A stretch of DNA of 46,807 nucleotides from Elusimicrobiota bacterium (GTDB lineage Bacteria; Elusimicrobiota; Elusimicrobia; FEN-1173). The position numbers were made by a program, and so were the translations under genes. The notes beneath the pieces are model-generated. The model was not told the DNA's origin, did not search any database, and saw only the letters and a program-made list of their open reading frames with translations. Numbering within the stretch: position 1 is the first letter of the stretch; each line of letters begins with the position of its first letter. The stretch is taken from contig JBQTIM010000090.1 in NCBI GenBank assembly GCA_052388135.1, forward strand, positions 1-46,807, written 5' to 3'. Positions 1 through 38,371 of the stretch are shown here, piece after piece.

Positions 1-3000
1 GACGCCAACAGGGACTTGCTGGTGGTGACCGTGGAGGTTAAAAACTTGGGAGGGGAAGACCATAATTTCCAACTCGTCGCACAAGGAGCAAGCGCCGAGG
101 GTGGGCGCGCACGGGTGGAAGACGGTCGCGTGATCCTGAGCGGGAAAGCCTCCGTGATTGTTCAGCCTGAATTTAATCCAACGCAAGTCGCGGTTTCCGG
201 GCCCGGCTATACTTTGGAAGGCCCTTCCACCGTCCTGCTCTCGGACGAAACCGCCGCTTTCTCCTTTCAGGTGGCGGGAGCGCTTACGGAAGACGAACCC
301 GCCGCCGTCCGGCGGCTTGAGCGGCTCCCGGACGGTTCAGCGAGCGACCTGATCGCCGAGGGGCAACGTCGCTGGGCAAAGCTTTTGGGCACATTGGAAT
401 CGCCCGAAGTGAAAGATCATCAGAACGTCCTGTATCGGGCGGTCATCATCCTGATGAAGAACATCGTTTCTCGAGCGGATTCGAATGGTCTTGGGGTTCC
501 CGTTCCCAACCGCTCTTCGGACTTGGAAGTCCAGCTTCCGGCCGCGGCGCTTTCCATCGCCGCCTTGGCTGAGTTGGACGCTGATGCCGCCGAAGGCGCG
601 GTCCGCGCGCTCTTGAGCGAAGATCCGGAAGATGCGGTTCGTCTCCAGTCGCCCGCCTTGGCTTGGGCGGCGCGGCAAGTGTACGAAAGAAAAATGACGC
701 CGCGGGACGGAAAGCCGAGTTCGGCTGTCCAAAGAAAAGCGGAAAAATTTTTACGCGAAATTTATCCTTCCTTGACGGCGTGGAACGGCGCGTGGCGGAC
801 CGTATACGATGAGGACGGGGACGGTTTGGTTTCCCGGGACGGCGTGGTGGAGGCCGATTTGAACGCTCACCTATTGATGGACATGAAAACCCTGGCCTGG
901 ATGGCCCGGGCTTTGGGCAAGGAAGCCGAAGCCGCCCAGTGGGAACAGAGAGCCGAAACCTTGGGTCGCATGATGCTCTACAACCTCTACGATGTTCAAA
1001 GCCATACGTTTCGCAACATGGACGCCGACAGCCGGGAGTTTGTCGGCGCGCAAGAACGGCCTTCCCTCCTGCCTCTCCTGGCCGGAGTTCCGCTCCCCGC
1101 GGAAGCCGTCTGGGCCACGACAGAAGAACAGTTTTTAGGCGAGTCCAGCCTTGACGTTCTTGATCCCGCCCGAGCATATTTTTCCTTGATCCTCCTGTCC
1201 TCTGTAAGCGGTCTCATGGCCCACAAGGGCTGGCATGACCGGGCTGAGCGGCTGAATCAGAAAATCAATGAAAGCCGCGGAAGCCTCTTGGCGTATTACG
1301 ACCTGAACGGCCTTCAAGGCCGGTCCGGCACCGAAATCGTGCAGGATTTCTCGCCCGCCGCCGCCGCCGCCCTTCTCGCGGGATTGAAACGGCAGGCCGA
1401 TCAAGGCGTTTGGACGCCTGAGGAACATCGAGAATTGTCTCCCATCCCGCCGGCGCCGGAGCCCGCCTACGCCGGTGTGTACGTCAACAATGACCGCGTT
1501 CACCTGCGGCTCATCCGCGACAGCGTCATAAAAAGCGCCGAGGTCTTTTTGCCGCCAGAAGGAGAAGGCGATATTGCGTCTCTGGTTCTTCAAATGTTAA
1601 GAGAGATGCTGGAAGAGATGGAGAGCCAAACGGGTGTCCCCGGCTATCTGGCAAGTGCCGGCATCGCAGCCAACCCGCTGGGCCGAAACCGTCAACCCCG
1701 GCGTGACATGGCGGCGGGCATCGGATCCCGGCTGTGGCTGGAATGGGATGTCCCTTGGTGGCGTAGCCGGGTCCGAGGGTTCAGCCACGCGGCCGTCACC
1801 ACCCGGGCCGCGGCCGAGTCCCTCCAATGGCACCGGGCCGGACCCTTGGACGTGGTGGACGTTGTCCCGGACGACGACACGGGTGAAATGCGCCCTTCGG
1901 AGCTGGCGTCCTTTGAGGAGTACAGACGCCTTACCATCGAACGGGGATACGCCACACCTGAAATTTGGAACGATATCGAACGGGAGGCCCGGGCTTTTAA
2001 AGGCAAAAAAGCCGTCTTCCTCAACTCGACGGCCCAGGGCGGGGGAGTGGCTTTGATGCGCCACGCCATAATCAGGCTTTACCGCCAGCTGGGTGTGGAC
2101 GCCCACTGGTTCGTGTTGGAAGGAAACCCGCAGGTTTTCGAGATCACGAAAAATAAAATGCACAACGTTTTTCAAGCGATTCCCGGTTACGGCGGCGAGC
2201 TGACGGACATGGACCGTGAGATCCTGGCCGATTTTGCCCGCCATAATTTTGAAAGGATGAAGTGGGTTTTGGCGGATGCCGACGTCATCGTAAAAGACGA
2301 TTATCAAGGTGTGGAAATGCTCCCCATGATCCGGGCGGTCAATCCCCAGGCCAAAATTTTATACCGGTCCCATATCCAAATCCAAGCGCGGTTGATTGAC
2401 GCGGCGGAAGAGACTCCTCAGAAAACCCTTTGGGCTTATGTTTTGGATAAATTGCAGAAAGCCGAGATCGATCTCTTCATCAGCCACCCTCTGCCCGAGT
2501 TTGTGCCGGGTTTGCGGGAAGACGCCGACGGGGCTTATATGGAACTTCCGTCTTCGTTCGGCGCCTCGCGTGTGCCCGTGGATTTCATGGGCGCCACCAC
2601 GGACCCTTTGGACGGCCTGAATAAACCCCTGACGGACGAACAACGGCAATTTCATATGGAGCGTTTCAACGAGGTGCTCCAGAGAGCCGGCCAGGAGCCC
2701 TTGGATTTGGCTCGTCCATGGTTTATTCAGGTGGCTCGGTTTGATCCCGCCAAGGGCATTCCCGAATTGATCGAAGCTTACAGCCGGTTCCGGCGCCGCT
2801 TGGAGGAGGCCAAAGCCGCCGGAACCATCTCCGCCGAGACACCCGTGCCCCAACTCGTCATTATGGGCCACGGCGCCGTGGACGATCCCGAAGGCCAACC
2901 CCTCTACGACAAGGCCCGCGAACAAATCCGCTCGCTTCCCTTGGAAATTGCCCGCGACATCAAAGTGGCCCGGGTGGCCCACAACGACCAAGTCCTCAAC

Positions 3001-4344
3001 GCGGCCCTGCGGGGGGCCACGGCGGCTTTGCAGCTCTCGATCGCGGAAGGCTTCGAAGTGAAAGTTTCCGAAGCCAAGGACAAGGGCGTCCCCGTCATCG
3101 CCTACGAAACCGGCGGCATTCCCAAACAGATCCACGATGGAGAAAGCGGCCATCTCGTGCCGGTGGGCGAGGTCAACAGTTCCTCCGACCGAACGAGACG
3201 AATGGACCAAGTCGCCGGGTTGCTTTATCAATACGCCACCGATGACGGATTCCGGGAAAGGATGCAAGCGGGCGCCGCGCGAGACCGCCGCCCCGACGCT
3301 TGGACGCCCATGAACGCGCTCCGGTGGCTCCGGCATTTCAACCGGGCGCCCCGCCGGATGAGCGCGGAAGTTGCAGGCGAGCAACTGACCCTGTTCAACA
3401 TGGCGCCCGGCCTGTCGCTGTTGGCCTTGACGCCTGCGGGGGCCGCGCCCGGAATCGCGGCGGCAGCGGCGTTTGGACTGGGATTGCTCACCTTCGCGCT
3501 CCTGTTCAAATGGGGAATGCTGGTTTCTCGAAGGCGCGCGGCCGCCCATGTCGGGGTTCGTCAGTCGCCGGGCGTGCGGCGGCAAGAGGACCGCGCCGGC
3601 ATTGTTCGGGCTTTGGGGGAGGAAATCTTGAAAGACGTGGTTTTGGACGGCCGCGCGCGTCCCGTTCAATGGAGCCTGCCCAACGGACAAACCGTCGGCG
3701 TCGAGGGCTTGCTTGCCGAAGACAGGTTGGGTGGGGAGCGTCTCCACAGACGCCTGGGCGAGCTTTTAAACGGGACGGACCCGGACGAAGCAAAAGGCCT
3801 CGTCGCCGCAGGTTTGCAAAAGGCTCTGGTGCAGCATTCGGGCGTGGATGTGAGCGGGATTGGCGCGGAAATGGGGGAGAATCCTATCTCCCTGGTCGCG
3901 GCCCCGCGCGATTTGCGCGCCTTGCTTCCTCGCTTGCTCGGCGTCCAGACAAGCGGCCGCTTGCTGGTTCTGGTGGAAAGCCTGCGCGAGGCCGAGCAAG
4001 AAGCGCGGATTCTTGGACTCAAGCGGCATAACGGAGATTGGCTTTCGGAAAACGGCGTGATCGTTCGATTCGAGGCGGCCGGCCCGGCTCTCAAGGGCGA
4101 TCGTTTCCGCCTGGCCGAAGCGGACCCGCGGCTGAGGATATTCGCCGGTTCCACCCCTTACACGTCCGTGAACGTCTTTGTGGCCGATCACCTCACCGTG
4201 GACGATTCGGGACTGGCCGGCGATTCGCCCTTGCGCCGGGCCGTCATTATCTTCATCAACAGTCTTCTTCAAGCTTTGCCCCTGCGTTTTGAGGATTTGC
4301 CTCACCTGGACAAAGCCGCCCGTTACCTGGCTCAGCAAGCGTAA
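1..4344 (+). CDS. Giant multidomain protein, 5'-truncated: degenerate GH63/GH37-like (alpha/alpha)6 domain + GT4 trehalose phosphorylase/synthase + TM helix + unknown C-terminal domain
   Basis: Frame is open from base 1. Motifs DEDGDGL..EADLNAHL..LAWMARALGK (GH barrel); NSTAQGGGVALMRH, YRSHIQ, LFISHP, QVARFDPAKG, GHGAVDDP, EGFEVKVSEA (trehalose phosphorylase/TreT GT4); hydrophobic stretch at ~3410-3525. Confidence 0.85.
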   Translation, partial: DANRDLLVVTVEVKNLGGEDHNFQLVAQGASAEGGRARVEDGRVILSGKASVIVQPEFNPTQVAVSGPGYTLEGPSTVLLSDETAAFSFQVAGALTEDEPAAVRRLERLPDGSASDLIAEGQRRWAKLLGTLESPEVKDHQNVLYRAVIILMKNIVSRADSNGLGVPVPNRSSDLEVQLPAAALSIAALAELDADAAEGAVRALLSEDPEDAVRLQSPALAWAARQVYERKMTPRDGKPSSAVQRKAEKFLREIYPSLTAWNGAWRTVYDEDGDGLVSRDGVVEADLNAHLLMDMKTLAWMARALGKEAEAAQWEQRAETLGRMMLYNLYDVQSHTFRNMDADSREFVGAQERPSLLPLLAGVPLPAEAVWATTEEQFLGESSLDVLDPARAYFSLILLSSVSGLMAHKGWHDRAERLNQKINESRGSLLAYYDLNGLQGRSGTEIVQDFSPAAAAALLAGLKRQADQGVWTPEEHRELSPIPPAPEPAYAGVYVNNDRVHLRLIRDSVIKSAEVFLPPEGEGDIASLVLQMLREMLEEMESQTGVPGYLASAGIAANPLGRNRQPRRDMAAGIGSRLWLEWDVPWWRSRVRGFSHAAVTTRAAAESLQWHRAGPLDVVDVVPDDDTGEMRPSELASFEEYRRLTIERGYATPEIWNDIEREARAFKGKKAVFLNSTAQGGGVALMRHAIIRLYRQLGVDAHWFVLEGNPQVFEITKNKMHNVFQAIPGYGGELTDMDREILADFARHNFERMKWVLADADVIVKDDYQGVEMLPMIRAVNPQAKILYRSHIQIQARLIDAAEETPQKTLWAYVLDKLQKAEIDLFISHPLPEFVPGLREDADGAYMELPSSFGASRVPVDFMGATTDPLDGLNKPLTDEQRQFHMERFNEVLQRAGQEPLDLARPWFIQVARFDPAKGIPELIEAYSRFRRRLEEAKAAGTISAETPVPQLVIMGHGAVDDPEGQPLYDKAREQIRSLPLEIARDIKVARVAHNDQVLNAALRGATAALQLSIAEGFEVKVSEAKDKGVPVIAYETGGIPKQIHDGESGHLVPVGEVNSSSDRTRRMDQVAGLLYQYATDDGFRERMQAGAARDRRPDAWTPMNALRWLRHFNRAPRRMSAEVAGEQLTLFNMAPGLSLLALTPAGAAPGIAAAAAFGLGLLTFALLFKWGMLVSRRRAAAHVGVRQSPGVRRQEDRAGIVRALGEEILKDVVLDGRARPVQWSLPNGQTVGVEGLLAEDRLGGERLHRRLGELLNGTDPDEAKGLVAAGLQKALVQHSGVDVSGIGAEMGENPISLVAAPRDLRALLPRLLGVQTSGRLLVLVESLREAEQEARILGLKRHNGDWLSENGVIVRFEAAGPALKGDRFRLAEADPRLRIFAGSTPYTSVNVFVADHLTVDDSGLAGDSPLRRAVIIFINSLLQALPLRFEDLPHLDKAARYLAQQA

Positions 4345-5270: not shown

Positions 5271-7721
5271 GTGACCATATGGGAAGGGGTGTTCGAATGT
5301 AAGCGTTTCGCCGGGGAGGCTTTCGACTCCCGCTTCAGCCTGCCGGGGACGGAGCCGCAATACGCCCCGGACCGCGCTTTCGACACGGAGCACATCCGGT
5401 TGGAAGTGAAGCTGGACATCCCCCGCAAGTCCCTGGAAGGGATCTGCGTCACCACCCTGCGGGCCCTGCGGGATGGGGCGGACAGCGTGGCCTTCGACGC
5501 GGTGCATTTCCGCGTCTTGTCCGTGCGGTCGGCGGGCCGCGCGCTGAAATACGAGTACGACGATAAGAAGCTCACCGTGCGCCTGCCCGCCCCCGTTCCG
5601 GCGGGCCGGCGGGTGGACGTGTCGGTGGCCTACCGCGTGTCCAAGCCCAAGCTGGGGATGTATTTCATCGGTCCGGACAGGAAATATCCGGACAAGCCGG
5701 TGCAGGTTTGGACCCAGGGGGAGGACGAGTACGCCCGCTATTGGTTCCCCTGCCACGACGCGCCCCAGGACCGCACCACCACCGAGATCATCGCCTCGGT
5801 GCCCAAGGGGATGACGGCGGTGTCCAACGGGCGGTTGGCGGGCAAGAGCGCGCGCGGACGCAACGCCGTTTTCCATTGGAAGCAGGACATCCCCCACGCC
5901 ACATACCTCGTCACGCTGGCCGTCGGAAAGTTCACGGAAATCAAGGACAAGTGGCGGAACGTGCCGGTGCTTTACTATTGCCAGCCGGGGCGGGAGGAGG
6001 ACGCCAAGCGCGCCTTCGGCAAGACGCCCAAGATGATGGAATTTTTCTCCAAGAGCATCGGCGTGCCTTACGCCTACCCGAAATACGCCCAGGTGGCGGC
6101 GGTGGACTTCATTTACGGCGGCATGGAGAACACCAGCGCCACCACGCAAACGGCCCTCACGCTCCACGACGAGCGCGCCCACCTGGATTTCTCCAGCGAC
6201 CCGCTGGTGGCCCACGAGCTGGCCCATCAATGGTTCGGCGACCTGCTCACCTGCAAGGACTGGTCCCACGCCTGGCTCAACGAAAGCTTCGCCACCTATT
6301 TCGAGGCCCTGTTCACCGAGCACGACAAGGGCGCCGACGAGTTCGCCTGGGAGCTGAGGCAGAACGCCCAGTTGTATTTCGAGGAGGACAGGGAGCATTA
6401 CCGCCGGCCCATTTCCACCAAGAAATACAAGCAGCCGTCGGATCTTTTCGACAAGCATTTGTACGAAAAGGGCTCGCTGGTCCTGCACATGCTGCGGACG
6501 ATCCTCGGCGACAAGGATTTCTGGCGGTCCATGCGGTTCTACGTGTCCCGCCACAAGGCCGGCGTGGTGGAGACCAACGACCTGCTCAACGCCGTTCAGG
6601 ACGCCACGGGCCGCAACCTGGGCCGTTTCTTCGACCAATGGATTTTCAAGGCGGGCCACCCGGAATACAAGGTGCGTTGTTGGTGGGACGCCGTCGCCCG
6701 CGAGGCGCGGGTCCGCGTGATCCAGACCCAGAGCACCAACGAAGAAACCGGCCTGTTTTCCATGCCCCTGACATTCGCGTTCCAGACCGACGGCGGGGAG
6801 AAGCGCTTCACGGAAACGGTGGAGAAGAAATCCCATCTGTTCAAGTTCAAGCTTCCGTCGGAGCCGCGCCTGGCGCTTTTCGACCCCGACCACGCCGTGT
6901 TGAAGAAGGTGGATTTTCCGAAATCCGAAGAGATGTGGATCCGCCAACTGACGCGGGACCCCCACGCGCTGGGCCGGGCGGACGCCGCCCAGGCCCTGGG
7001 GCGCCTGGGCGGCCCCGCCGCCGTGAAAGCCCTGCGGGAAGCCCTCTTCGCCGAGAAATTTTGGGGCGTGCAGGGCGAAATCGCGCGGGCGCTGGGGCAG
7101 ATCCGCACGCCCGAGGCCCAGGAGGTTCTCTTCCGCGCCCACGACAAATTGGAGCACCCCAAGGCCCGCCGTTTCGTGATCGCCGCCCTGGGGGATTTAA
7201 AAAGCGCCCAGGCCAAAGACCGCCTGCGGAGCCGCGCGCGCCGGGAGGAAAGCTACTTCGCGGAAATTCAATCCGTGAAGTCCCTGGCCCAGACGGGCGA
7301 CATGTCCCTGCTCTCCTTCGTGACCGACGGCTTGAAAGCCGAATCCTGGAACGACGTCCTGCGCTCCGGCGCCCTGGAGGCCGTGGCCGCCCTGCGCCCG
7401 CCGGAAGCCGTGGCCATCCTGAAGCGGCACGCGGCCTACGGGAACGCTCACACGACACGAATGACGGCCATCCGCGGCCTCGCGCACCTGGGCGAAGGGC
7501 GGGAGGACGTGCGGAAATTTTTGATCGGCCTGCTGAGCGACCCGTTCCTGCTGGTGCAGATCTCGGCCGTGCGGGCGATCTCCCAAGTGGGCGACGAGCG
7601 CGCGGTCCCGGCCCTCAAGAAACTCACCGAGGGCGACCGGGACGGCCGCTTGAAGCGCCTGGCCGAGGAGGCCGTCAACAAGCTCCGGAAGGGAATCGAA
7701 GCGGACTCCAAGAAGAAGTGA
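5271..7721 (+). CDS. pepN: M1 family aminopeptidase with C-terminal HEAT repeats
   Basis: GGMEN and HELAHQWFGDL..WLNESFA zinc motifs, YEKG, HEAT-like repeats; GAGGAGGA RBS before the GTG. Confidence 0.92.
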   Translation: MTIWEGVFECKRFAGEAFDSRFSLPGTEPQYAPDRAFDTEHIRLEVKLDIPRKSLEGICVTTLRALRDGADSVAFDAVHFRVLSVRSAGRALKYEYDDKKLTVRLPAPVPAGRRVDVSVAYRVSKPKLGMYFIGPDRKYPDKPVQVWTQGEDEYARYWFPCHDAPQDRTTTEIIASVPKGMTAVSNGRLAGKSARGRNAVFHWKQDIPHATYLVTLAVGKFTEIKDKWRNVPVLYYCQPGREEDAKRAFGKTPKMMEFFSKSIGVPYAYPKYAQVAAVDFIYGGMENTSATTQTALTLHDERAHLDFSSDPLVAHELAHQWFGDLLTCKDWSHAWLNESFATYFEALFTEHDKGADEFAWELRQNAQLYFEEDREHYRRPISTKKYKQPSDLFDKHLYEKGSLVLHMLRTILGDKDFWRSMRFYVSRHKAGVVETNDLLNAVQDATGRNLGRFFDQWIFKAGHPEYKVRCWWDAVAREARVRVIQTQSTNEETGLFSMPLTFAFQTDGGEKRFTETVEKKSHLFKFKLPSEPRLALFDPDHAVLKKVDFPKSEEMWIRQLTRDPHALGRADAAQALGRLGGPAAVKALREALFAEKFWGVQGEIARALGQIRTPEAQEVLFRAHDKLEHPKARRFVIAALGDLKSAQAKDRLRSRARREESYFAEIQSVKSLAQTGDMSLLSFVTDGLKAESWNDVLRSGALEAVAALRPPEAVAILKRHAAYGNAHTTRMTAIRGLAHLGEGREDVRKFLIGLLSDPFLLVQISAVRAISQVGDERAVPALKKLTEGDRDGRLKRLAEEAVNKLRKGIEADSKKK

Positions 7722-8512
7722 GCCCTTCGTTTTCCGTCCTCCTGGCTTCCCCGGACGACGCGCCGCCGGAAACGGTGTCCCGGCTCCTGGCCGCGTTCCT
7801 CGACGTCCCGCAAATAGACTCGCGCCGCCTGGCCAACCACGCCTGGGGTTTCCTGGGCGAAAAGCTGGAGGAAGCCGACGCGGCGCGCTTGAAGGAGCTG
7901 GCCGCGCAGGCGGGCTTGGAAACCTTCATCGCGCCCGCCGACGAAATCCTTCTCCCGCCTCCTTCCCACGCGGTCACCGGGGCCCGGTTCTCGGCGGACG
8001 CCCTTTCCTTCTCGAGCCGCGCCGGCGAAATTTCCCTGCCGCCCGGAAAAGCGTCCCTCCTCTGCGCCGTGGGGCTGACGGAAGAGTCTTCTTTCCTGAA
8101 AACCGTGCATGAGGGCCCGTCCGCCGGCCGGAAGGCTCTCAAGCTCGGCTTGCTGGCGGCGGGAATTCCCACGCCCGGCTGGGGAAAAAGCAAAGACGTT
8201 CAAAAAACGGTGAAAAGCTCGGAGTTTTTCCTCTATATGGACATTTTCACCCAGGACCCTCCGGACCGCCTGCACGTGGACGCCCAGGCTTTCGATTTCA
8301 GCTGTCTGGGAGAGCGGCTCACGCCCGCCTCCTTCGGCAATTTCCGGCTGTTCCTGCAGGACGTTTCCCGCGCGGCGCCGGCGGCTGTCCGCAACCGCGG
8401 GGCGCGCATGATGCTGGAAGGCCGGCCCTTCGCGGCCATGGGCTACGCCTCGAAGGACGATTACGAAAAGGAATGCCGCTGGCTGTGGGCGCTGGCGCGG
8501 AGGACGGCGTGA
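7718..8512 (+). CDS. Hypothetical protein (264 aa)
   Basis: GTGA overlaps at both ends (pepN stop, xseA start). Only the 3' part of track ORF 5708..8512 is protein-like. Confidence 0.75.
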   Translation: MSPSFSVLLASPDDAPPETVSRLLAAFLDVPQIDSRRLANHAWGFLGEKLEEADAARLKELAAQAGLETFIAPADEILLPPPSHAVTGARFSADALSFSSRAGEISLPPGKASLLCAVGLTEESSFLKTVHEGPSAGRKALKLGLLAAGIPTPGWGKSKDVQKTVKSSEFFLYMDIFTQDPPDRLHVDAQAFDFSCLGERLTPASFGNFRLFLQDVSRAAPAAVRNRGARMMLEGRPFAAMGYASKDDYEKECRWLWALARRTA

Positions 8513-9858
8513 GGGACGCGGCCCAGGAGACCTACACCGTCAGCCAGGTGAACAAAGGGGTGGCGGCGGCGCTGGCGCAAAGCTTTCCCGACGCTTTCTG
8601 GGTGTCGGGCGAAATCCAGGGCTACGACCGCGACGCGGGCAAGGCGGCCGGCCGCCGCTGGGGCCAGGTCTATTTCGAGCTGGTGGAAAAAAAGGACGGC
8701 GCGGATTCCGTCAAGGCCGGCATCAAGGCCCTGATGTGGGGCGACGCCCGCGAGGCCGTTTTGCGCAAGCTCGCCGCGGTTTCGGACAAGCTGTTCCTGC
8801 AGGACGGCCTCAAGGTGCGCTTCCTTTGCCGGGTGGATTTTTACTGGCCCCGGGCCGGCCTTCAGCTCAAGGTGGAGGACGTGGACCCCACCTTCACCTT
8901 GGGCGACATGGAGCGGGCCCGGCGCGCCCTCCTGCTGTCGCTTCGGGAAAAAGGCCTGCTCGATAAGAACAAGTCCTTGTCCTTCCCCGCCGTGCCCTTG
9001 CGCGTGGGGCTCATCACTTCGGAAGGCAGCGCCGCCTACCACGATTTTTTGGAAGAACTGAAATCTTCCGGCTACGCGTTCCGGGTTTCTTTCTGGGACG
9101 CCCGCACCCAGGGCGCGGAAACCGAGGAGAACGTGTGCCGGGGGTTGCTCCGTCTGGGCCGTTCGCCGGACGTGGACGTGGTGGTGGTGGCGCGGGGCGG
9201 CGGGTCGCGGTCCGATTTGGTCTGGTTCGACAAGGAGAAAATCGCCCTCGCCATCGCCCGGTGCCCCAAGCCCGTGCTCACGGGCATCGGCCACGACATC
9301 GACCTCTCCGTGGCCGACATGGTGGCCCACAAAAATTTCAAGACGCCCACCGCCGCGGCGCAGTTCCTGGCCGCGCGGGCGCGGGCGTTCGAGGAAGGGC
9401 TCAAGGCCTGCGGCGCGGGCGTCGCGGAAGCGGCCCGCACGCGGCTGGCGGAGAACCGCCACGCCCTCCGGGAAAATTTGCGCGCGTGGCAGTACGCGTC
9501 GCAAACCCTGGCCGCCCGGTTCCGCGGCGAGCTGGCCCAGTGCGGGCGGGACTTTTTCCACGGGGCGCGGCGCCAGCTCCACCTCCGGCGGGAACGGTTG
9601 TCGCGGTCGCCGGAGCGCCTGGCGGGAGCCTCCGCCGGCCTCCTCCGCGCTTGCGCCGAACGTCTCGATTCCGTCCGCCGGGAGTGCGCCCTCAAGGACC
9701 CGAGGCGGCTTTTGGAGCGCGGTTATTGCCTTTTGGTTTCCGACGGGAAAATAGTGAAAAGCGTGGACCAAACGGACCCCGGCCGGGACCTGGAGGCGCG
9801 CTTGCGCGACGGCGTTCTCTCCGCTCGGGTTTTATCGAAAAGGAAGGCGGTCCCATGA
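8509..9858 (+). CDS. xseA: Exodeoxyribonuclease VII large subunit
   Basis: WVSGEI, VGLITS..SAAYHD, RGGGS..DL, TGIGHDID..VADMVA, TPTAAA; GGAGGA RBS before GTG 8509. Confidence 0.95.
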   Translation: MRDAAQETYTVSQVNKGVAAALAQSFPDAFWVSGEIQGYDRDAGKAAGRRWGQVYFELVEKKDGADSVKAGIKALMWGDAREAVLRKLAAVSDKLFLQDGLKVRFLCRVDFYWPRAGLQLKVEDVDPTFTLGDMERARRALLLSLREKGLLDKNKSLSFPAVPLRVGLITSEGSAAYHDFLEELKSSGYAFRVSFWDARTQGAETEENVCRGLLRLGRSPDVDVVVVARGGGSRSDLVWFDKEKIALAIARCPKPVLTGIGHDIDLSVADMVAHKNFKTPTAAAQFLAARARAFEEGLKACGAGVAEAARTRLAENRHALRENLRAWQYASQTLAARFRGELAQCGRDFFHGARRQLHLRRERLSRSPERLAGASAGLLRACAERLDSVRRECALKDPRRLLERGYCLLVSDGKIVKSVDQTDPGRDLEARLRDGVLSARVLSKRKAVP

Positions 9859-10133
9859 AAAAAAACAACGGCGGGCCGACTTACGCCGCGGCCTACGAGG
9901 AACTGCAGAAGATTCTGGAAGCTCTGGAGCAGGGCGAGGTGGACGTGGACGATCTCTCCGCCAAGGTGAAGCGCGCCGCCGAGCTCATCGAGTTCTGCCA
10001 GAAGCGCCTGAAAGAAACGGAGCTGGAAGTGAAGCGCGTGGTGGACCAGTTCCAGAAGGCCAAGATCGCGGACGACGACGAAGACGAGGACGACGCGGAG
10101 GAGGAAGGCGGCGAGAAGAGCGAACTTTTTTAA
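9855..10133 (+). CDS. xseB: Exodeoxyribonuclease VII small subunit with acidic tail
   Basis: YAAAYEELQKILEALEQGEVDVDDL..AAELIEFCQKRL; ATGA overlap with xseA. Confidence 0.93.
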   Translation: MKKNNGGPTYAAAYEELQKILEALEQGEVDVDDLSAKVKRAAELIEFCQKRLKETELEVKRVVDQFQKAKIADDDEDEDDAEEEGGEKSELF

Positions 10134-10950: not shown

Positions 10951-13683
<2,733 letters not shown>

Positions 13684-13690
13684 GGGCTTG

Positions 13691-14464
13691 TTATTCCTTT
13701 ATAGGATTACCGCGCTCCCCTGTCAACGAACCGGGCGGAGCGGAGGACGGTGCGATGGGCTCGACGGCCTCCTGCGGGACCCAGCCTTTGAGGCCCTGGT
13801 CCGGAACGCCGATCTCCCGCCAGCCTTCGGACCGGCCGAAGAGGATCACTTTCCGGCCCTCGGGCACGACGAAGCCCACGCGGAACTCGGGGCCGGGGCC
13901 GGCCCGGGCTTCGGCCCGCGCCTCCAGCACGATGCCCGCGGGCCGGCGACCTTGGGAGCGGCTGAAGAGCAAAAGCCCGGCGGCGGCCAAAAAGAGGAAC
14001 GCGGCGGTCCAGCGGCCCCACCAGACCCATTCCGCCCGGGAGTAGAGGCCGGCGGCCATCAAGAGGAAGAAGAAAAAATTGGCGGCGAGAAAAATCCACC
14101 CGGCGGCGGCCTCTTTGCCTTCCAGGAAACCGGGCGGCGCTTCTTCGGGCCATTGGGCGCGGATCAGGGCCAGGTTGTGCCGCGCGTCCTCGTGGGACGG
14201 GTCCGCCGCGCTGGCGCGCTCGTACCACAGGCGCGCGCGGCCCAAACGGCCGAGGCGGTAATAGGCGTTCCCTAAATTGTAGTAAAGCCCGGCGCCTCCC
14301 CAGCCCCGGCGCAGAACGTCCTCATAGCGGTCCCGCGCGGCGGCGAACTGACCCTGCTCGTAGGCCCGGTTTCCCAGGTCGAAAAGCTCCTGCGGCGTCT
14401 CCGCACGAAGCGCGGCCGCGGCCAGCAGCAACGCCGCCGCGAGGATGCCCGTCCGCCTCGTCAT
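13691..14464 (-). CDS. batE: BatE-like TPR + TM + SH3-like protein
   Basis: Signal peptide, [25 protein letters not shown], two TM segments, EARAGPG..EG.KV..GW..GWV; ATGA overlap with the batD stop. Confidence 0.8.
13698..13726 (-). promoter_or_regulatory. sigma70 promoter for acnA, embedded in the batE 3' end
   Basis: TTGACA-17bp-TATAAA on the minus strand, 14 nt upstream of the acnA ATG. Confidence 0.65.
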
Positions 14465-16365
14465 CGCCAAACCCCTTCCAGCTTCTGCAAAATATCCCGC
14501 AGGGCGCGGCCGCGGCGGCGGGCGCCGTCTTCATCGGAAGGCGCGGGCGCGAAGCGCGCGCGGTCCAGGCCGCTCCACAGGGCTTCCAGCTCCGCCACGG
14601 TTTCGCCGGGGGCCGCGCGGCGGCGGAGCTCCTCTTCCACCTCGGCCCAGGCGAGACCGCGGGCCGGCCGCTTCAGCTTGTCGCCCAAATAATCCAAAAG
14701 AATTTTCTGCAGGGCGGCCTCGTAGGCCGGCGCGTTCCCCTCGCGGAGGAAAGGCTCGGCGCGGGCCAGCCCGGCGCGGGCTTTCCGCAATGCCCGCCGG
14801 AAAGAAAGGCCCAGGGGATCCGCGGCCCGGCGGGCGCGCAGGAGGCGGTTTCCCCACAAGCCGGCGAAGGCCAGGGCGGGAAAAAAGTTGAGGAACGCGA
14901 AGGCGGGCGCGGCGGTGAACGAATCTTTGCGCGGGCGGAGGCGGGCGTTTCTTTGAATGAACCGGATGTCGCGGCCCATCACTTTCAAATCTTCCAACAG
15001 GGGCGCGGGGGCGGGGGCGGCCCGCCCGCCGCCGGGCGAAGGGCGCACCGTCAAGCGCAAGGGCTCCGACCGCGCGACGCGATAGGCGCCGGCCGCGGGA
15101 TCGAAGAAACCGAAGCTCACGGGGGGAACCTCCAGCGCGCCGGTGACGTCCGGCTTGAGGACCGTTTTAAAAACCTTGGAGCCGCGCACGCGGTAATCCT
15201 CCTTGGCGACGTTCAGGCTGCTCACCGTCTCGTAGACCTTGAACCCGTCCAGGGGCGGCAGGGCCGGCGCCGACAGGGCCTTCACGTTGCCTTCGCCCGA
15301 CACCGTGACCGTGAGGGTGACGGGCTCGTGCAGGTCCACGGCGCTTTTGTCCAGGGCGGCGGAAACGGCGTAGCGGCCCACGTCGCCGCGGAAGCCCTCC
15401 GGCCGCCCCGCTTCGGGCAGGGGAAGCACCCGGACCGCGATGGGATCCGTGCGCAGGGTCACCGCCTGGCCGGCGGAAAAAAATTCCTCGAACAAGGATT
15501 GGAACGGATCGCCGCCGCGGGAAAAATCCTGGACGCGGCATTGCAGGGATGCGGGCCCGATGGTGAACGCGCCCGGCGCCGTGGGGAAAAGCGCCGTTTT
15601 CAGCTCCACCACGGCGTAGTTCCGGCCTTCGAGGGACGCCGTGTACTGCCGCTGGGGCGGCAGGTCCTCGGCCAGGAAGCCCGTCGTGTCGGGCGGCGAA
15701 TAGGCGGGCTGGCTGGCCAGGCGGGCGCGGCTGTAGAAGCGGAACGTGAGGGTGAGGGGCTCGCCCACGTAAGCGGTTTTCTTGTCCGTCTCGGCGGTGA
15801 CGAAAAGGTCCCGAATCCGGCCCGGCGGCGGAGCGGCCGAGTCCGGCGGAGGGGCCGCCGGCGGGGAAGCCCCCGACAAGACCTTCACCGGGATGGGCGG
15901 GGTGGACAGGGTCTTTCCGCCGGCCTCCAGCGTGAAGGCGGGGATGGTGTAGTCGCCCGGGGCCTGGGGCTCCAGGGCGTAGGAGTAAACCACCTGGCTC
16001 GAGGTCCGGCCGTTGACGAAACTGAAGTTTTGGGACTGGCCCGCGGAGTGCGCCCGGAAGCCGGGAATGGGCGGCAGGCTGGGGCGCGGCGCGTTGAGGC
16101 CTCCGCCGGAGATGGCGAGCTGGAGCCGCAGGGTGTCGTTCATGGTGACGACGTTCCTGTCCACGGACGCCTCGAAGGAAACGTCGTCGGCGCGGAGAGG
16201 GGAGGCCGGGAAAAGCGTCAAAAGCAAAAAGCCGAGCGCCGGGAGCCGGAGGGGAGGACCGAAGCGGGCGCGAGAGGAGAGCGCGCGCGACGCTTTGCCG
16301 GGCGTCCGGCCTTGGAAGAACGGTCTGCCGGCGGGCCGCCGCGTTTGGTTTCTCGGCTTTTTCAC
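14461..16365 (-). CDS. batD: BatD family protein
   Basis: ASVDRNVV, SQNFSFVNG, DKKTAYVGEPL, LFPTAPG, VLPLPE..F.GDVG, VSGEGN, FFDP..Y; C-terminal TM. The start is uncertain because of an R/P-rich extension before the signal peptide. Confidence 0.85.
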   Translation of the reverse strand: MKKPRNQTRRPAGRPFFQGRTPGKASRALSSRARFGPPLRLPALGFLLLTLFPASPLRADDVSFEASVDRNVVTMNDTLRLQLAISGGGLNAPRPSLPPIPGFRAHSAGQSQNFSFVNGRTSSQVVYSYALEPQAPGDYTIPAFTLEAGGKTLSTPPIPVKVLSGASPPAAPPPDSAAPPPGRIRDLFVTAETDKKTAYVGEPLTLTFRFYSRARLASQPAYSPPDTTGFLAEDLPPQRQYTASLEGRNYAVVELKTALFPTAPGAFTIGPASLQCRVQDFSRGGDPFQSLFEEFFSAGQAVTLRTDPIAVRVLPLPEAGRPEGFRGDVGRYAVSAALDKSAVDLHEPVTLTVTVSGEGNVKALSAPALPPLDGFKVYETVSSLNVAKEDYRVRGSKVFKTVLKPDVTGALEVPPVSFGFFDPAAGAYRVARSEPLRLTVRPSPGGGRAAPAPAPLLEDLKVMGRDIRFIQRNARLRPRKDSFTAAPAFAFLNFFPALAFAGLWGNRLLRARRAADPLGLSFRRALRKARAGLARAEPFLREGNAPAYEAALQKILLDYLGDKLKRPARGLAWAEVEEELRRRAAPGETVAELEALWSGLDRARFAPAPSDEDGARRRGRALRDILQKLEGVWR

Positions 16366-17984
16366 CAGTCCTTCTCCACGTCTTTTTTGGACGCCGGCGC
16401 CCTCATTTTTTGCCGCGCTTCTTTCTCCTGGGCCTCCACGGCCTGAAGCAGGCGCTCGGCGTCCTCCTTGGAGAGCGCCCCCGGGCGGGCGCCGGCGGCC
16501 GCCGGATCCTTTTTGCCGCGGCCGTCTTCGCCGCCGCCGGACGGCTCTTGGTCCTTGGATCCGCCTTTGTTTTTCTCGTCCGGTTTGGGTTGCGATTTTT
16601 GCGCCTGCGTCATTTTCCGGGCCAGCTCCAGGTTGTGCTTGGCGTCGGCGTCGGCCGGGTTCAGCCGCAGGGCTTGTTTGTAGTGCTCCACCGCGTCGGA
16701 AAACCGCTCCTGCCGGAAGGAGGCATTGCCGGCGTTGTAGGCGCTGCGGGCGGCGCGCTCGGCGTCCGCGAATCCCGGCCGCGCGGCCTGGAACGACCGC
16801 GCCGCGGCGGAATAATCTCCCTTCTTATACTGCTTCACGCCCCGGTTGAATTCCGCGACGCTTTCGCCGGGAGCGCGGCCCAGAGCCTCCGCCCGCGGGG
16901 CCGCCAGCAGGAGAATCCCGGCCGCGGCGGACCGGCGGAAAAGACGCGGCGCCGTCTCGCGGGCGCGGCGCAGGAGCCGGCCGAAATGCCCGGGCGTCTC
17001 GGGCCAGAGGAATTCCAAGAGCAAAAGGGCCAGCGCCGCGGCCAGGGGCCAGGCGAACCGGTCCTCGTGTTGATCGAAAACTTTGGACTGCAGGGACTTT
17101 TTCTCCATGCCGCGCAGGTCGGCCAGGATGCGCTCCACCTCCACCTCGCCGTCGGTGGCGCGGTAATAGCGCCCGCCGGTCTTGGCCGCCATGTCCCGCA
17201 GGGCCTCCTCGTTCAATTTGGAAACCACCGTCTGTCCGGCCTTGTCCTTCTTGTAGGCGCTGAGGCCGCCCTGCTCGTCCCGCACGGGAATGATTTCGCC
17301 CTGGGGGCTGCCGAAGCCGATGGCGAACACGCGCACGCCCTCCTCCCGCGCGCGCTCCACGGCGGCCTCCAGCCGGCCGGAATGATCCTCTCCGTCGGTG
17401 AGCAGGACCAGGGCCTTGTGTTTCCGCTCCTCCCGGACGAAGGCCTCGCGGGCCGCGTCCAGCGCCGCGGCCAGGGAGGTGCCGGGCGCGGGGATCAAAT
17501 CCGTGGTGATGAGGTCCAGCAACATGCGCGCCGCGCCGTAGTCCAAAGTGAGAGGACATTGCAGAAAGGCGGTTCCCGCGAAGGCCACCACGCCCACCCG
17601 GTCGCCCTCCAGCCCGCCTATGAGGAGGCCCAACTCCCTTTTCGCCTGGACCAGCCGGTTGGGCTTCACGTCCTCCGCCAGCATGCTGGCCGACGTGTCC
17701 ACGGCCCGCATCACGTCCCCGCCGCGGCGCCGCGCCTCCTGGAACTTGAGCCCCCAGCGCGGGCCCGCCAGCGCCAGGAAGAGGAACAGGCACGCCAGCA
17801 GGGCGAGCACGGCCTTCACCCGCTGGTGCCGTTCGGCCGCCGGGTCCCAGAGCTTACGCAGCACCGGCGCGTCCCCCAGGGCGGACAGGAGCCTGCTCTT
17901 CCGCCGGAAGCCCGCCACGAACAGGGCGGCCGGCAGCAACAGCGCGGGCAGGAGCCACAGGGCCCACGGCCGGGAGAAGATCAT
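16362..17984 (-). CDS. batB: vWA domain + TPR protein (BatB-BatC fusion)
   Basis: ALAGPRWG, MIDAS DTSASM..DVKPNRL, CPLTLDY, LLTDGEDH; then TPRs (YNAGNA..F, AKHNLELA), a K/Q/G linker and DAERLL..EKDW (BatC-type end). Confidence 0.85.
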   Translation of the reverse strand: MIFSRPWALWLLPALLLPAALFVAGFRRKSRLLSALGDAPVLRKLWDPAAERHQRVKAVLALLACLFLFLALAGPRWGLKFQEARRRGGDVMRAVDTSASMLAEDVKPNRLVQAKRELGLLIGGLEGDRVGVVAFAGTAFLQCPLTLDYGAARMLLDLITTDLIPAPGTSLAAALDAAREAFVREERKHKALVLLTDGEDHSGRLEAAVERAREEGVRVFAIGFGSPQGEIIPVRDEQGGLSAYKKDKAGQTVVSKLNEEALRDMAAKTGGRYYRATDGEVEVERILADLRGMEKKSLQSKVFDQHEDRFAWPLAAALALLLLEFLWPETPGHFGRLLRRARETAPRLFRRSAAAGILLLAAPRAEALGRAPGESVAEFNRGVKQYKKGDYSAAARSFQAARPGFADAERAARSAYNAGNASFRQERFSDAVEHYKQALRLNPADADAKHNLELARKMTQAQKSQPKPDEKNKGGSKDQEPSGGGEDGRGKKDPAAAGARPGALSKEDAERLLQAVEAQEKEARQKMRAPASKKDVEKDW

Positions 17985-18024
17985 GAGCGAAAGGCTCCGC
18001 CGCGCGTTGGAAAAAAGGCGCGGC

Positions 18025-19017
18025 TCACGGTAGCCTCCACAAGAGCGTCTGCGAAAGGAGGATTTCCGTCAAGAAAACGATCAACCCCGCCAGAAGCCAG
18101 GGGAAGTAAACGTCTTGATAATCGGTGAACGTGCGCACTTTCACCTCGGTTTTCTCCAGGCGGTCTATCTCTTTGTACACCTTTCGAAGGCTCTCCAGGT
18201 CCGTGGCCCGGAAATAAAGGCCGCCGGCGGTCTCGGCCACCAGACGCAGGGCCGCCTCGTCCAAATCGTTGGGCACGCGCACCAGGCGCTCGCCGAACAG
18301 GGGGTCGCGCATGGGCCGCAGGGCGGACTCGCCGGGCGTCCCCGCGCCCACGGCGTAAATCTTGATGCCGAAAGCCGCGGCGGCCTTGGCGGCCGTGGGC
18401 GGATCCACCGCGCCGCGGTTGTTGCTGCCGTCGGTGAGCAGGACGATGGTCTTGCTCTTGGCCTCGCTGTCCTTCAGCCGCGCCACGCAGGCGGCGATGG
18501 CGTCGCCGATGGCGGTTCCGTCCTCCTGGATCATGCCGATGCGCACGTTGTCCAAAAAGCCCAGGAGGGCGCCGTAATCCGTGGTCAGCGGGCATTGGGT
18601 CATGGCCAGGCCGGAAAACACCACGAGCCCGATGCGGTCGTGCCGCCGGTTGCGGATGAACTCGCGCACCACGTCCTTGGCCGCGTCGAGCCGGTTCTTG
18701 GGCTGAAAATCCAGAGCCTCCATGCTGCCGGAGGTGTCCACGCAGAGCATGATGTCCGTGGCGGGCGTGAGCGCCTCCTCGCTCTTTTGTCCTTTCTGGG
18801 GGCGGGCGAGCGCCACGATAAGAAATCCCAGCGCCGCCAACCGCAGGGCGCTCAGAAAGAGCAAACCGTCCCGCCGCCGCGCCGGCCGGGGCCCCAGCAG
18901 GTCCAGCGATGAAAACCGCATCCGCGCCCGGGCCTTCAGCCCCCAAAAATAATCGTAGGCGGCCAGAAGCGGCAGAACCAAGAGCAGCCAAAGCGCGTGC
19001 GGGTAGGCGAAGTGCAT
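18025..19017 (-). CDS. batA: vWA domain protein BatA
   Basis: ALARPQ, DTSGSMEALDF.P.NRL, DRIGLVVF, CPLTTD, GTAIGDA, LLTDGSNN, IDRLEKT. Confidence 0.9.
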   Translation of the reverse strand: MHFAYPHALWLLLVLPLLAAYDYFWGLKARARMRFSSLDLLGPRPARRRDGLLFLSALRLAALGFLIVALARPQKGQKSEEALTPATDIMLCVDTSGSMEALDFQPKNRLDAAKDVVREFIRNRRHDRIGLVVFSGLAMTQCPLTTDYGALLGFLDNVRIGMIQEDGTAIGDAIAACVARLKDSEAKSKTIVLLTDGSNNRGAVDPPTAAKAAAAFGIKIYAVGAGTPGESALRPMRDPLFGERLVRVPNDLDEAALRLVAETAGGLYFRATDLESLRKVYKEIDRLEKTEVKVRTFTDYQDVYFPWLLAGLIVFLTEILLSQTLLWRLP

Positions 19018-19074
19018 CAAAGATCCAAGAATAAAGCCGTGGAGGCTGTATGGTTTGCCGGAATGTTTTTTTTC

Positions 19075-19338
19075 TCGGGCCCCCGTGCGGCGTTTCGAGC
19101 ACGTCGGTTCGTCGCCGGTGTCGGCCAGGGGCTCCGCCCCTGGACCCGGCCATACTTTCTTTTTGCTCGTCCAAAAAGAAAGTATGGAGAAAGAAAAAGA
19201 CGCCCCCGGCGGCCTGCGCGCGCCGTTCCGACGGCGGCCCTCAACTCGGCCTCCTCAGCGGCCGTCGGAGGCCTCGGACAATCGGGCCTCCCGCCCCGTC
19301 GGAACGGCGTGCTCGAAACGCCGCAGGGGGACCCGAAA
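19075..19338. repeat. Structured repeat family B, copy 1 (core 19144-19338, plus a 29-bp terminal inverted repeat)
   Basis: Core is homologous to the reverse complement of 42986-43179. Hairpin CCATACTTTCTTTTTG/CAAAAAGAAAGTATGG; 19075-19103 is 27/29 complementary to 19308-19336. Confidence 0.88.
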
Positions 19339-19365
19339 GGCAGGGCAGGCGGACGAAAAGCAGCG

Positions 19366-21131: not shown

Positions 21132-21257
21132 GGGAGGCCTCGGCGCCCGACGGGATCGCGGAAGGACCGGCGGTTTCGGGAAGGAGCGCGGAACGGCGAA
21201 TTCACGGACGGCGCGCCGGCGGGGCGAAGGCTCGCGAGGCGGCCGCCGGGCCGGCCT

Positions 21258-22244: not shown

Positions 22245-22294
22245 GCCTTCCTCCTCGAGAACACGCGATGAACGCCGCTGCGCGGCGGATAAAA

Positions 22295-22324
22295 AGTATA
22301 GCTCCCGGCCCCGCGCGCCGTCAA
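22295..22324 (-). promoter_or_regulatory. sigma70 promoter of the moxR-bat operon
   Basis: TTGACG-18bp-TATACT on the minus strand. Confidence 0.6.
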
Positions 22325-22338
22325 CGTGAACGGCGTCG

Positions 22339-22367
22339 TTGACAAACGGGGGGACGGGAGATAGAAT
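22339..22367 (+). promoter_or_regulatory. sigma70 promoter of the phoH operon
   Basis: TTGACA-17bp-TAGAAT, back to back with the moxR promoter. Confidence 0.7.
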
Positions 22368-22483
22368 TAAGGCATCCCTCCCTCGCGCGCTCATACATCA
22401 ATCCGCTCATCGGCACCCGCGGACGGCTCTCCGGGCCTTCCGCCCGGCCCTTTTGAGCCCGTCCGAGCCCGGGACCTAACCCC

Positions 22484-36700: not shown

Positions 36701-38371
<1,671 letters not shown>

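Follow-up and report, generated by a model that had tools for sequence, protein, structure and literature searches.

A trehalose phosphorylase-type domain within a predicted membrane-tethered, multi-enzyme protein of about 3904 residues from an Elusimicrobiota bacterium

Configuration-retaining trehalose phosphorylases (TPs) of glycosyltransferase family GT4 (EC 2.4.1.231) have been characterised from Grifola frondosa, Schizophyllum commune and Pleurotus sajor-caju, and the cited excerpt of one review describes all characterised GT4 phosphorylases as fungal trehalose phosphorylases, none with a solved structure (PMC8950772); the excerpt of a second review likewise records no GT4 structure (PMC7896129). 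One review places EC 2.4.1.231 in GH65 and is ambiguous about its presence in bacteria; our reading does not draw on it. Very long membrane proteins that carry several enzymes, among them glycosyl transferase group 1, PGM and starch synthase domains, are described for Omnitrophota in the cited portions of two preprints (West-Roberts et al. 2023, bioRxiv 10.1101/2023.11.21.568195; Nielsen and Lui 2026, bioRxiv 10.64898/2026.06.07.730766), which report very large genes in Elusimicrobiota too. The word 'trehalose' occurs zero times in the main text of either preprint; a literature search on Elusimicrobiota giants found nothing, and searches for trehalose phosphorylase in connection with these phyla or with gene transfer gave nothing relevant among the matches listed. 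Here we analyse a gene at the start of contig JBQTIM010000090.1 (C90) of the Elusimicrobiota assembly GCA_052388135.1 (2.37 Mb, 234 contigs); the stretch of 46,807 nucleotides under study, hereafter the window, forms the beginning of that contig. On balance we favour the view that this gene encodes an intact GT4 TP-type module within an inner-membrane-tethered protein of ~3904 residues, which would link the cell's own alpha-glucan and trehalose at the level of glucose-1-phosphate.

Read in frame 1, the window has no stop codon between the contig edge (base 1) and 4342-4344, and this frame encodes 1447 amino acids. The initial annotation had placed a fungal-type trehalose phosphorylase domain at 1460-3345 on the strength of nine motif strings, all of which we recover once each and in frame between nucleotides 1726 and 3075, far beyond chance; the proposed span agrees with that of an N-terminal extension plus GT-B core. 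The motifs and the two parts of the domain, all on the forward strand and in the residue numbering of frame 1, are as follows.

SRLWLEWDV: aa 576-584, nt 1726-1752, + strand
FEEY: aa 638-641, + strand
STAQGGGVALMRHAIIR: aa 676-692, nt 2026-2076, + strand
GGGVALMRH: aa 680-688, + strand
YRSHIQI: aa 788-794, + strand
DLFISHP: aa 824-830 (SHP at 828-830), + strand
GATTDPLDGLNK: aa 864-875 (DGLNK at 871-875), + strand
RFDPAKG: aa 913-919, + strand
GHGAVDDP: aa 956-963, + strand
EGFEVKVSEA: aa 1016-1025, nt 3046-3075, + strand
nt 1453-1920, + strand: N-terminal extension domain, specific to the TP type and holding SRLWLEWDV, aa 485-640
nt 1921-3330, + strand: GT4 catalytic core of GT-B fold, TP type, aa 641-1110

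The Protein Data Bank (PDB) entries matched by the domain in sequence are exclusively TreT enzymes (E-values from 1e-32 to 7e-25, the best being Pyrococcus horikoshii TreT at 1.2e-32), and Pfam recognises TreT_GT1 (3e-29, aa 674-829) and Glycos_transf_1 (9e-15, aa 902-1065). One alternative is thus that the domain is a trehalose synthase or transferase that depends on nucleoside diphosphate (NDP)-glucose, like TreT (NDP-glucose + glucose → trehalose): its only solved relatives are TreT enzymes, the names given by NCBI to fungal relatives include 'trehalose synthase', and the Arg, the Lys and the E-x7-E glutamates are common to the TP-type and TreT-like groups. Several observations speak against it. 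The NCBIfam TreT equivalog NF041139 gives 132.7 bits, far below its cut-off of 775, and the alignment with P. horikoshii TreT places GGGVAE and EGFGLTV of that enzyme opposite GGGVAL and EGFEVKV of the window, a residue contrast repeated in nine TreT-like proteins of related genomes and already pointed out in the initial annotation. Identity amounts to 39% with a chytrid protein, over 100% of the query, versus 26-29% with the TreT structures. At all columns that separate 71 other TP-type sequences from the nine TreT-like rows the window is in the TP state (for example M686, R687, H688, R692, D766, H829, D871-G872-L873, P916, E1019 and K1021), and the phylogenetic split between the two groups described below has a support of 100. 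On the identities, the state of the diagnostic columns and the clade split we assign the domain to the TP type rather than to ordinary TreT, and the profile of the N-terminal extension agrees. The fusion of a relative to PGM (P0040) would also suit a glucose-1-phosphate product, and in the excerpt of the review cited above the characterised GT4 phosphorylases all belong to the fungal trehalose phosphorylase group (PMC8950772). We therefore regard a TreT-like activity as unlikely.

Within the TP type the domain is well preserved. Among the 71 other sequences, 70 columns are at least 90% conserved, and the window carries the majority residue in 68 of them, the two departures being Trp to Phe at aa 745 and Leu to Tyr at aa 1078; every invariant column is kept, as are the Arg and Lys of RFDPAKG and both glutamates of E-x7-E. 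Together with the fold and the extension described below, these residues lead us to regard the domain as a complete and seemingly intact representative of the family from which the fungal trehalose phosphorylases have been assayed. A search restricted to long proteins returned 38 relatives, led by large Omnitrophota proteins (46% and 39% identity) and followed by chytrid, Nannochloropsis, ascomycete and microsporidian proteins (31-40%) that share GGGVALMRH; among these long relatives an MGH1-like domain occurs only in the window's own protein.

The fold supports the same assignment. An AlphaFold prediction for aa 485-1110 (626 residues), made on a 53-sequence alignment (A2), reached a predicted local distance difference test score (pLDDT) of 88.7 and a predicted template-modelling score (pTM) of 0.88. 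Its residues 157-626 superpose by VIA on Thermoproteus uzoniensis TreT (6zj4) with Z 31.0 and a root-mean-square deviation of 2.2 Å over 385 residues, the next GT-B folds following at Z 21, and Foldseek likewise finds TreT (6zn1, E 7.8e-28, TMt 0.87). Residues 1-156 of the model form a separate alpha/beta domain that the TreT structures leave uncovered, predicted with high confidence in the order strand-strand-strand-helix-strand-helix-strand-helix; the Trp at aa 579 is invariant in the 53 sequences. This extension is shared by many prokaryotic homologues of ~600 residues, which cover 100% of the 626-residue query, and a profile built for it, scored against 20 eukaryotic sequences only, matches 18 of them just upstream of their cores (E 1e-12 to 7.5e-5), missing P0082 and P0033.

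The family reaches well beyond fungi. Of 1.84 billion representative proteins searched exhaustively, 2721 match at E ≤ 1e-3 and 165 at E ≤ 1e-30, lengths of ~600 residues being frequent among them, and aa 485-1110 as query recovered 1514 proteins at E ≤ 1e-10 among 8000 scored. The 120 matches listed for that query measure 549-716 residues, many with 100% query coverage, and include cultured Ktedonobacteria; for 10 of the 120 the JGI name is 'alpha,alpha-trehalose phosphorylase (configuration-retaining)'. In GTDB, with one genome per species, 108 loci encode a relative, distributed over Ktedonobacteria and other Chloroflexota, many lineages of the Candidate Phyla Radiation (CPR), DPANN archaea, Omnitrophota, Elusimicrobia, FCPU426 and metagenome-assembled genomes (MAGs) labelled Gammaproteobacteria or Bdellovibrionales. 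Eukaryotic holders are, by name, chytrids, microsporidia, Basidiomycota, Ascomycota and one Zoopagomycota genus. The TP-type family is thus not rare in prokaryotes and is partly annotated by automatic means already. Closer to home it is scarce: 40 related genomes gave no TP-type gene and no such fusion, their best matches being TreT-like open reading frames (ORFs) of ~410 residues (E 4e-22 or weaker), and 400 other genomes sampled from the phylum gave a single TP-type gene, an unfused 585-residue ORF of 47% identity.

A tree of 81 core sequences (quick IQ-TREE run, LG+C20, SH-aLRT support), whose rows were picked for diversity with most ~600-residue matches and archaeal TreT left out, takes its root from TreT-like proteins of relatives only. 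It sets 72 TP-type rows apart, with a support of 100, from the nine TreT-like proteins of ~410 residues; one locus (L045), whose chosen ORF had no BLAST match, was dropped. The window groups with five Omnitrophota proteins of 802-4589 residues and one metagenome protein (support 99), next to two stand-alone Elusimicrobia proteins (82). All 20 eukaryotic rows, Nannochloropsis and four microsporidia included, form one clade together with one unnamed protein (93), nested among prokaryotic rows, and appear as sister of the window's group with a support of only 83. The single eukaryotic clade within prokaryotic sequences hints at a single ancient transfer. A bacterial sister group of the fungal enzymes had been suggested in the initial annotation, and a prokaryotic group does surround the eukaryotic clade, but that group is large and partly named by JGI; the grouping with TreT that would have spoken against the proposal is not found, and what is already partly annotated is the domain alone, the fusion being rare. 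In the same tree an alpha/beta-hydrolase-bearing protein of 1017 residues (P0077) adjoins a chytrid protein (99), and two loci, from an FCPU426 MAG (L080) and an uncultured bacterium (L069), carry the TP module in open frames that fill the 17-kb locus and encode at least 5734 and 5782 residues, grouping with P0133, P0136 and P0121 at 100.

The window holds only the 3' part of the gene, the remainder lying on a second contig (C121).

Window 1-4344, + strand: 3' part of the gene, 1447 codons plus stop, open at the contig edge
C121:1-7404, - strand: 5' part of the gene, outside the window

The reverse-complemented end of C121 and the start of the window share an exact in-frame overlap of 18 nucleotides, and a 789-residue fragment from another assembly (P0336) spans both contigs, its residues 1-691 aligning at 99% with the minus strand of C121 from base 2073 to base 1 and its residues 686-764 at 100% with window positions 1-237. 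Because of this overlap and bridge we take the gene to be continuous from C121 into the window; it begins at a Met near C121:7389 and has 2463 codons on that contig and 1447 in the window, ~3904 residues in an uninterrupted frame. Exact end overlaps of 21-127 nucleotides and a blastn search with the first 600 nucleotides revealed no joining contig. The claim of the initial annotation that the domain is one module of a membrane-associated, multi-domain protein of more than 1447 residues thus holds, with the full length now recovered upstream. The bridging fragment has a frame-shifting gap of 37 nucleotides against window 238-274, at the start of the glycoside hydrolase (GH) domain, which may reflect either a difference between strains or a fault in the assembly. 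Elsewhere in the genome, contigs C57, C62, C73 and C83 are each a single open frame from end to end (7166, 6734, 3706 and 2552 residues), that of C62 holding NAD-epimerase and PGM domains and that of C73 a methyltransferase domain, and complete ORFs of 6221, 5196 and 3999 residues lie on C12, C100 and C125; much of the fragmentation of the assembly seems to fall inside giant genes.

The TP core has a GC content of 0.58 and a third-position GC content (GC3) of 0.70, compared with a GC3 of 0.80 for the N-terminal module of the same protein and 0.92 for groEL. The GroEL protein of the window is 71-72% identical to that of two MAGs named Elusimicrobia by NCBI; identity falls to 65-66% for MAGs of Omnitrophota and FCPU426 and to 61% for a Ktedonobacterium. 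The lower GC3 together with the grouping of the module with Omnitrophota modules at a support of 99 suggests that it was acquired horizontally. One could then imagine a decayed or non-catalytic passenger in a fast-evolving, horizontally assembled giant gene, and the long terminal branch of the window (0.92 versus a median of 0.3), the low GC and GC3, the lack of an orthologue in the 40 relatives and the frame-shifting difference in the second assembly would fit such a passenger. We consider it very improbable, given 3904 uninterrupted codons, agreement at 68 of 70 conserved columns including all invariant ones, and a confident structure model.

From the N terminus the predicted parts of the protein are a signal-like leader, an N-terminal module (N-module), about four transmembrane (TM) helices, an alpha-glucan phosphorylase-like domain, a GH13-like domain, a GH63/GDE-like domain, the TP-type domain, a hydrophobic hairpin and a C-terminal tail. 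Those in the window other than the TP-type domain are listed here.

1-1452, + strand: six-hairpin domain, GH63/MGH1-like or GDE-like, with the last portion of its beta-rich N-terminal part, aa 1-484
3391-3531, + strand: hydrophobic stretch of ~47 residues, aa 1131-1177, Kyte-Doolittle peak 2.15
3532-4341, + strand: C-terminal region, aa 1178-1447, its last ~60 residues (4162-4341) a conserved tail ending in QQA

The three enzyme-like domains that precede the TP-type module are recognisable to different degrees. The phosphorylase-like region matches PF00343 (2e-10) and PDB entry 9l6i (9e-6) and is 40-52% identical to stand-alone ORFs of ~570-670 residues in 25 of the 40 relatives and 46% identical to a 589-residue ORF on C207 of the same genome. 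The GH13-like region (~aa 1745-2280) has homologous counterparts within four further giant ORFs (E 1e-40 to 1e-32) and matches more weakly (1e-8 to 1e-5) proteins mostly of ~480-590 residues; five of five such weaker matches that were scanned (491-829 residues) hit the alpha-amylase family PF00128. The GH domain of the window matches the Pfam family MGH1-like_GH (PF22422) at 4.1e-20 and 73.1 bits against a cut-off of 27 (aa 282-394), and more weakly Trehalase (PF01204, 2e-4) and the NCBIfam alpha-glucosidase PRK10137 (1e-4); feature hits in the ESM Atlas at 0.93-0.95 are clusters of GDE_N_bis, GDE_C and MGH1-like (PF22422), the PDB gives a single weak row, a periplasmic GH37 trehalase at E 0.36, and a protein search with the GH region returned P0336 alone.

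The remaining parts recur in other proteins. The leader starts with positive charges, which a hydrophobic stretch and an Ala-x-Ala site follow; the motif that comes next is conserved across 29 paralogues and homologues. Within the first ~45 residues of the C121 ORF and 28 homologues, the hydrophobic stretch ends in (A/H)-x-A, and an acidic-aromatic-basic succession comes after it, mostly A-E-x-N-F-W-x-E-R-R; the leader thus resembles a tag dedicated to sorting more than an ordinary signal peptide. The N-module covers residues ~20-495, or up to ~655 in some copies (C121 ORF; L095:5305-7404:-), with the invariants Q161, D162, H164, E192 and G592-G593-F594-H595 (alignment A3; homologues L124-L128 and L154-L173). 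All 14 of 14 genomes of the same family have at least 12-16 matches each to the C121 part, the phosphorylase-like match included; most of these are N-modules, which head open frames of 550-13,472 residues, and the N-module is also found in long ORFs of the own genome and in two TP-carrying giants from elsewhere. Its model has a pLDDT of 74.6, with a core above 90 and a large helical insert. Foldseek against the PDB gave no match at E ≤ 1e-3, and the top five VIA matches (HopBA1, two 'succinoglycan biosynthesis' proteins, the erythromycin esterase EreC and ChaN), which we take to be one superfamily, are borderline at Z 7.9-8.8. We read the hydrophobic stretch downstream of the TP-type domain as a hairpin in the membrane or a pair of short TM helices, the turn being rich in Pro and Gly. 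For the C-terminal region we found no Pfam or NCBIfam match and no tblastn paralogue in the genome at E 1e-3, and its best Atlas score (0.88) is uninformative. The tail, of the form D-S-P-L-R ... ending in Q-Q-A or M-A, is nevertheless 35-52% identical to the extreme C termini of six large ORFs (672-3084 residues) and 32% identical over 164 residues to a 175-residue ORF, these seven (L114-L120) being spread over six related genomes, and similar tails are seen by eye on five long ORFs of the own genome (C16, C115, C124, C125 and C209); besides the leader, the tail may be another element for sorting or docking.

Where the enzymes lie relative to the membrane was judged from Kyte-Doolittle hydropathy and charge counting only, with flanking charges read by eye. 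Hydrophobic segments at aa 797-924 of the C121 ORF are read as four TM helices, and Arg/Lys-rich stretches occur before TM1, between TM2 and TM3, after TM4 and on both sides of the hairpin; the TM1-TM2 loop is acidic, and the short loops predicted outside are acidic or neutral. By the positive-inside rule, the Lys/Arg-rich flanks lead us to predict that the enzyme array and the C-terminal tail are cytoplasmic, and on these charges the array is likely to be on the cytoplasmic face. The competing arrangement is export of the array to the periplasm or surface, where it would process host, prey or environmental sugars. The leader with its Ala-x-Ala site, conserved on this protein and its paralogues, argues for an exported N-module and hence, if there are four TM helices, for an exported array; four Omnitrophota relatives (P0004, P0012, P0016 and P0025) have hydrophobic N termini, by eye, and sugar-metabolism domains of giant proteins are predicted to be extramembranous in the cited portions of the two preprints (bioRxiv 10.1101/2023.11.21.568195; 10.64898/2026.06.07.730766), one of which doubts its own TM-based localisation in the part cited. 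Weighed against Lys/Arg-rich segments on either side of the array, the phosphate that phosphorolysis requires, a glucose-1-phosphate that feeds cytoplasmic PGM, and a genome that encodes its own trehalose and glycogen synthesis enzymes, export appears improbable. The suggestion in the initial annotation that the enzyme mobilises a storage sugar of a host or prey fits poorly with these charges and with the presence of the cell's own OtsA-type and GlgA-type genes.

What the module would do is indicated by the company it keeps. In other long proteins the TP domain is fused to PGM, NUDIX and PRPP-synthetase-like domains (P0040), GH13 (P0099), GDE_C (P0104), a GT5 starch synthase (P0136), a histidine phosphatase (P0003) or an alpha/beta hydrolase (P0077). 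A survey of 36 stand-alone TP loci with 142 flanking ORFs found one MGH1-like GH (L066), one GH37 trehalase (L076, E 3.3e-70), five major facilitator superfamily (MFS) transporters, three NUDIX and three universal stress proteins, and one histidine phosphatase (L064). One related genome of this class has a TreT-like gene back to back with a GH13 gene of ~493 residues, after which comes a GT8 (L150; G038:C3:48781-52203). This mirrors, with separate genes, the joining of GH13 and TP in the giant protein, and by its coordinates the TreT-like/GH13 pair is present in a second genome too (G022:C3, ~75.5-77.6 kb). In the own genome there are matches of the OtsA and GlgA types and three stand-alone PGMs, a further PGM lies within another giant ORF, and a second TreT or TP gene was not found.

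Because fusion partners, neighbours and the cell's own trehalose and glycogen genes point in one direction when taken together, we propose a role at the glucose-1-phosphate node. The data establish the family, the fold, the conserved residues, the continuity of the gene and the order of its domains, whereas substrate, direction of the reaction and location are what we infer. A trehalose phosphorylase would catalyse trehalose + Pi ↔ alpha-glucose-1-phosphate + glucose, and the four enzyme domains would act on the cytoplasmic face around the glucose-1-phosphate node of the cell's own alpha-glucan and trehalose pools: either both stores would be degraded to glucose-1-phosphate and glucose, or the phosphorylase would run in reverse and form trehalose from glucose-1-phosphate and the glucose freed from glucan. 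A more specific and decidedly speculative extension, to which we give a small chance, is that the tethered single chain converts stored alpha-glucan to trehalose at the expense of neither ATP nor nucleotide sugars. The phosphorylase-like domain would supply alpha-glucose-1-phosphate, the GH13-like/GDE-like pair would free branch-point glucose, and the TP-type domain would condense the two; leader, erythromycin-esterase/ChaN-like N-module and C-terminal tail would then be a shared chassis into which enzyme modules are plugged, some of them exchanged between Omnitrophota and Elusimicrobiota.

A different substrate would alter this proposal, and the domain might instead act, as a retaining phosphorylase or transferase, on a different alpha-glucoside (a compatible solute resembling glucosyl-glycerate, for instance, or an alpha-glucan primer), with the fused GH as the matching hydrolase. 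That GH best matches a mannosylglycerate-hydrolase-like family, P0003 contains a fused histidine phosphatase and L064 has one as its neighbour, the branch of the window is long, and the prokaryotic branch is known from sequence alone. On the other hand, the 70 conserved columns are common to eukaryotic and prokaryotic members and followed by the window at 68, which argues for one conserved chemistry; the neighbour in L076 is a true GH37 trehalase, and JGI orthology gives names of the EC 2.4.1.231 type. Another glucoside is accordingly a rather unlikely substrate. For the role at the node of glucan and trehalose metabolism that we prefer, the points that count to its disadvantage, beyond the long branch, the frame-shifting difference and a signal-peptide-like leader that, were the TM helices even in number, would imply an array exported from the cytoplasm, are these. 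Substrate and phosphate use are judged from an identity of 35-40% to uncharacterised eukaryotic members, and a literature search found no assay of a member of the prokaryotic branch. Two of the partner domains are divergent: the phosphorylase-like region scores 1.4e-28 and 100 bits with TIGR02094, below the cut-off of 191.7 bits, and the GH13-like region has no direct Pfam match. Finally, 34 of the 36 stand-alone loci lack a trehalase-like neighbour, and most neighbours are unrelated to sugar metabolism.

The genes around the giant gene are likewise of other kinds. Upstream on C121 lie a thioredoxin-reductase-like gene and LigD, and downstream in the window housekeeping genes; flanking genes on both sides are unrelated to sugar metabolism, and an Rfam scan of the window gave no match.

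Window 5271-7721, 8473-10133 and 10951-13683: respectively M1 aminopeptidase with HEAT repeats, exonuclease VII large and small subunits (xseAB), aconitase
Window 14461-22394, 29843-33408 and 36725-38371: respectively BatD/VWA-TPR/MoxR cluster, GlyQ/GlyS, GroEL

The unusual feature of the locus is a TP-type domain within a four-enzyme, membrane-tethered protein of 3904 residues built on a chassis common to dozens of long proteins per genome in this lineage. A family described as fungal in the cited excerpts of two reviews (PMC8950772, PMC7896129) spans many prokaryotic phyla, with the eukaryotic clade nested among them (93), and its bacterial and archaeal members are now open to assay and crystallography. 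The fusion partners (glucan phosphorylase, GH13, GDE-like, PGM and starch synthase) offer independent genomic support for a role at the glucose-1-phosphate node, and some of the 'glycosyl transferase group 1' modules of giant Omnitrophota proteins can be given a concrete name. With ~3,900 residues, four recognisable enzymes and clear membrane segments, the gene is also a manageable case in which to ask why some uncultured bacteria chain metabolic enzymes on the membrane.

Set beside the fungal retaining trehalose phosphorylases, the module has the same motif set, the same N-terminal extension and the same position relative to TreT, as judged on 20 eukaryotic homologues from chytrids, microsporidia, Ascomycota, Basidiomycota, Zoopagomycota and Nannochloropsis; the assayed Grifola, Schizophyllum and Pleurotus enzymes, which are not among these, presumably carry the same motifs. 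It differs in a core identity of 34-42% to the eukaryotic homologues (31-40% in the alignments of the long-protein search) and in being an internal module of a 3904-residue membrane protein, whereas the homologues measure 693-973 residues. With TreT (P. horikoshii, 2x6q; T. uzoniensis, 6zj4) it shares the GT-B fold, the Gly-rich loop, the Arg/Lys pair and E-x7-E, but TreT is only 26-29% identical, has ~410 residues and lacks the N-terminal extension, differs at ~20 diagnostic columns and uses NDP-glucose. The stand-alone prokaryotic TP-type proteins (~600-680 residues) of Ktedonobacteria, CPR/Patescibacteria, DPANN archaea, Elusimicrobiota and the MAGs labelled Gammaproteobacteria or Bdellovibrionales are 36-46% identical over the 626 residues of extension and core and, unlike the module of the window, are unfused and without membrane segments.

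At the level of the whole protein, the nearest comparisons are two. Eukaryotic bifunctional glycogen debranching enzyme consists of a GH13-type transferase followed by a GDE_C-type glucosidase; in the window's protein, too, a GH13-like domain is directly followed by a GDE/GH63-like six-hairpin domain in one chain, but here the pair is flanked by two phosphorylase-type domains, and the likeness is one of domain order, not of sequence-level orthology. The giant proteins of Omnitrophota, for their part, likewise combine several sugar-metabolism enzymes with TM helices or a signal peptide in one chain, and the TP module of the window groups at a support of 99 with those of Omnitrophota proteins of 802-4589 residues; the described classes, however, have at least 10,000 residues compared with ~3904 here, and the present protein, judged by the GroEL identities (71-72% to Elusimicrobia MAGs against 65% to an Omnitrophota MAG), probably belongs to a different phylum.

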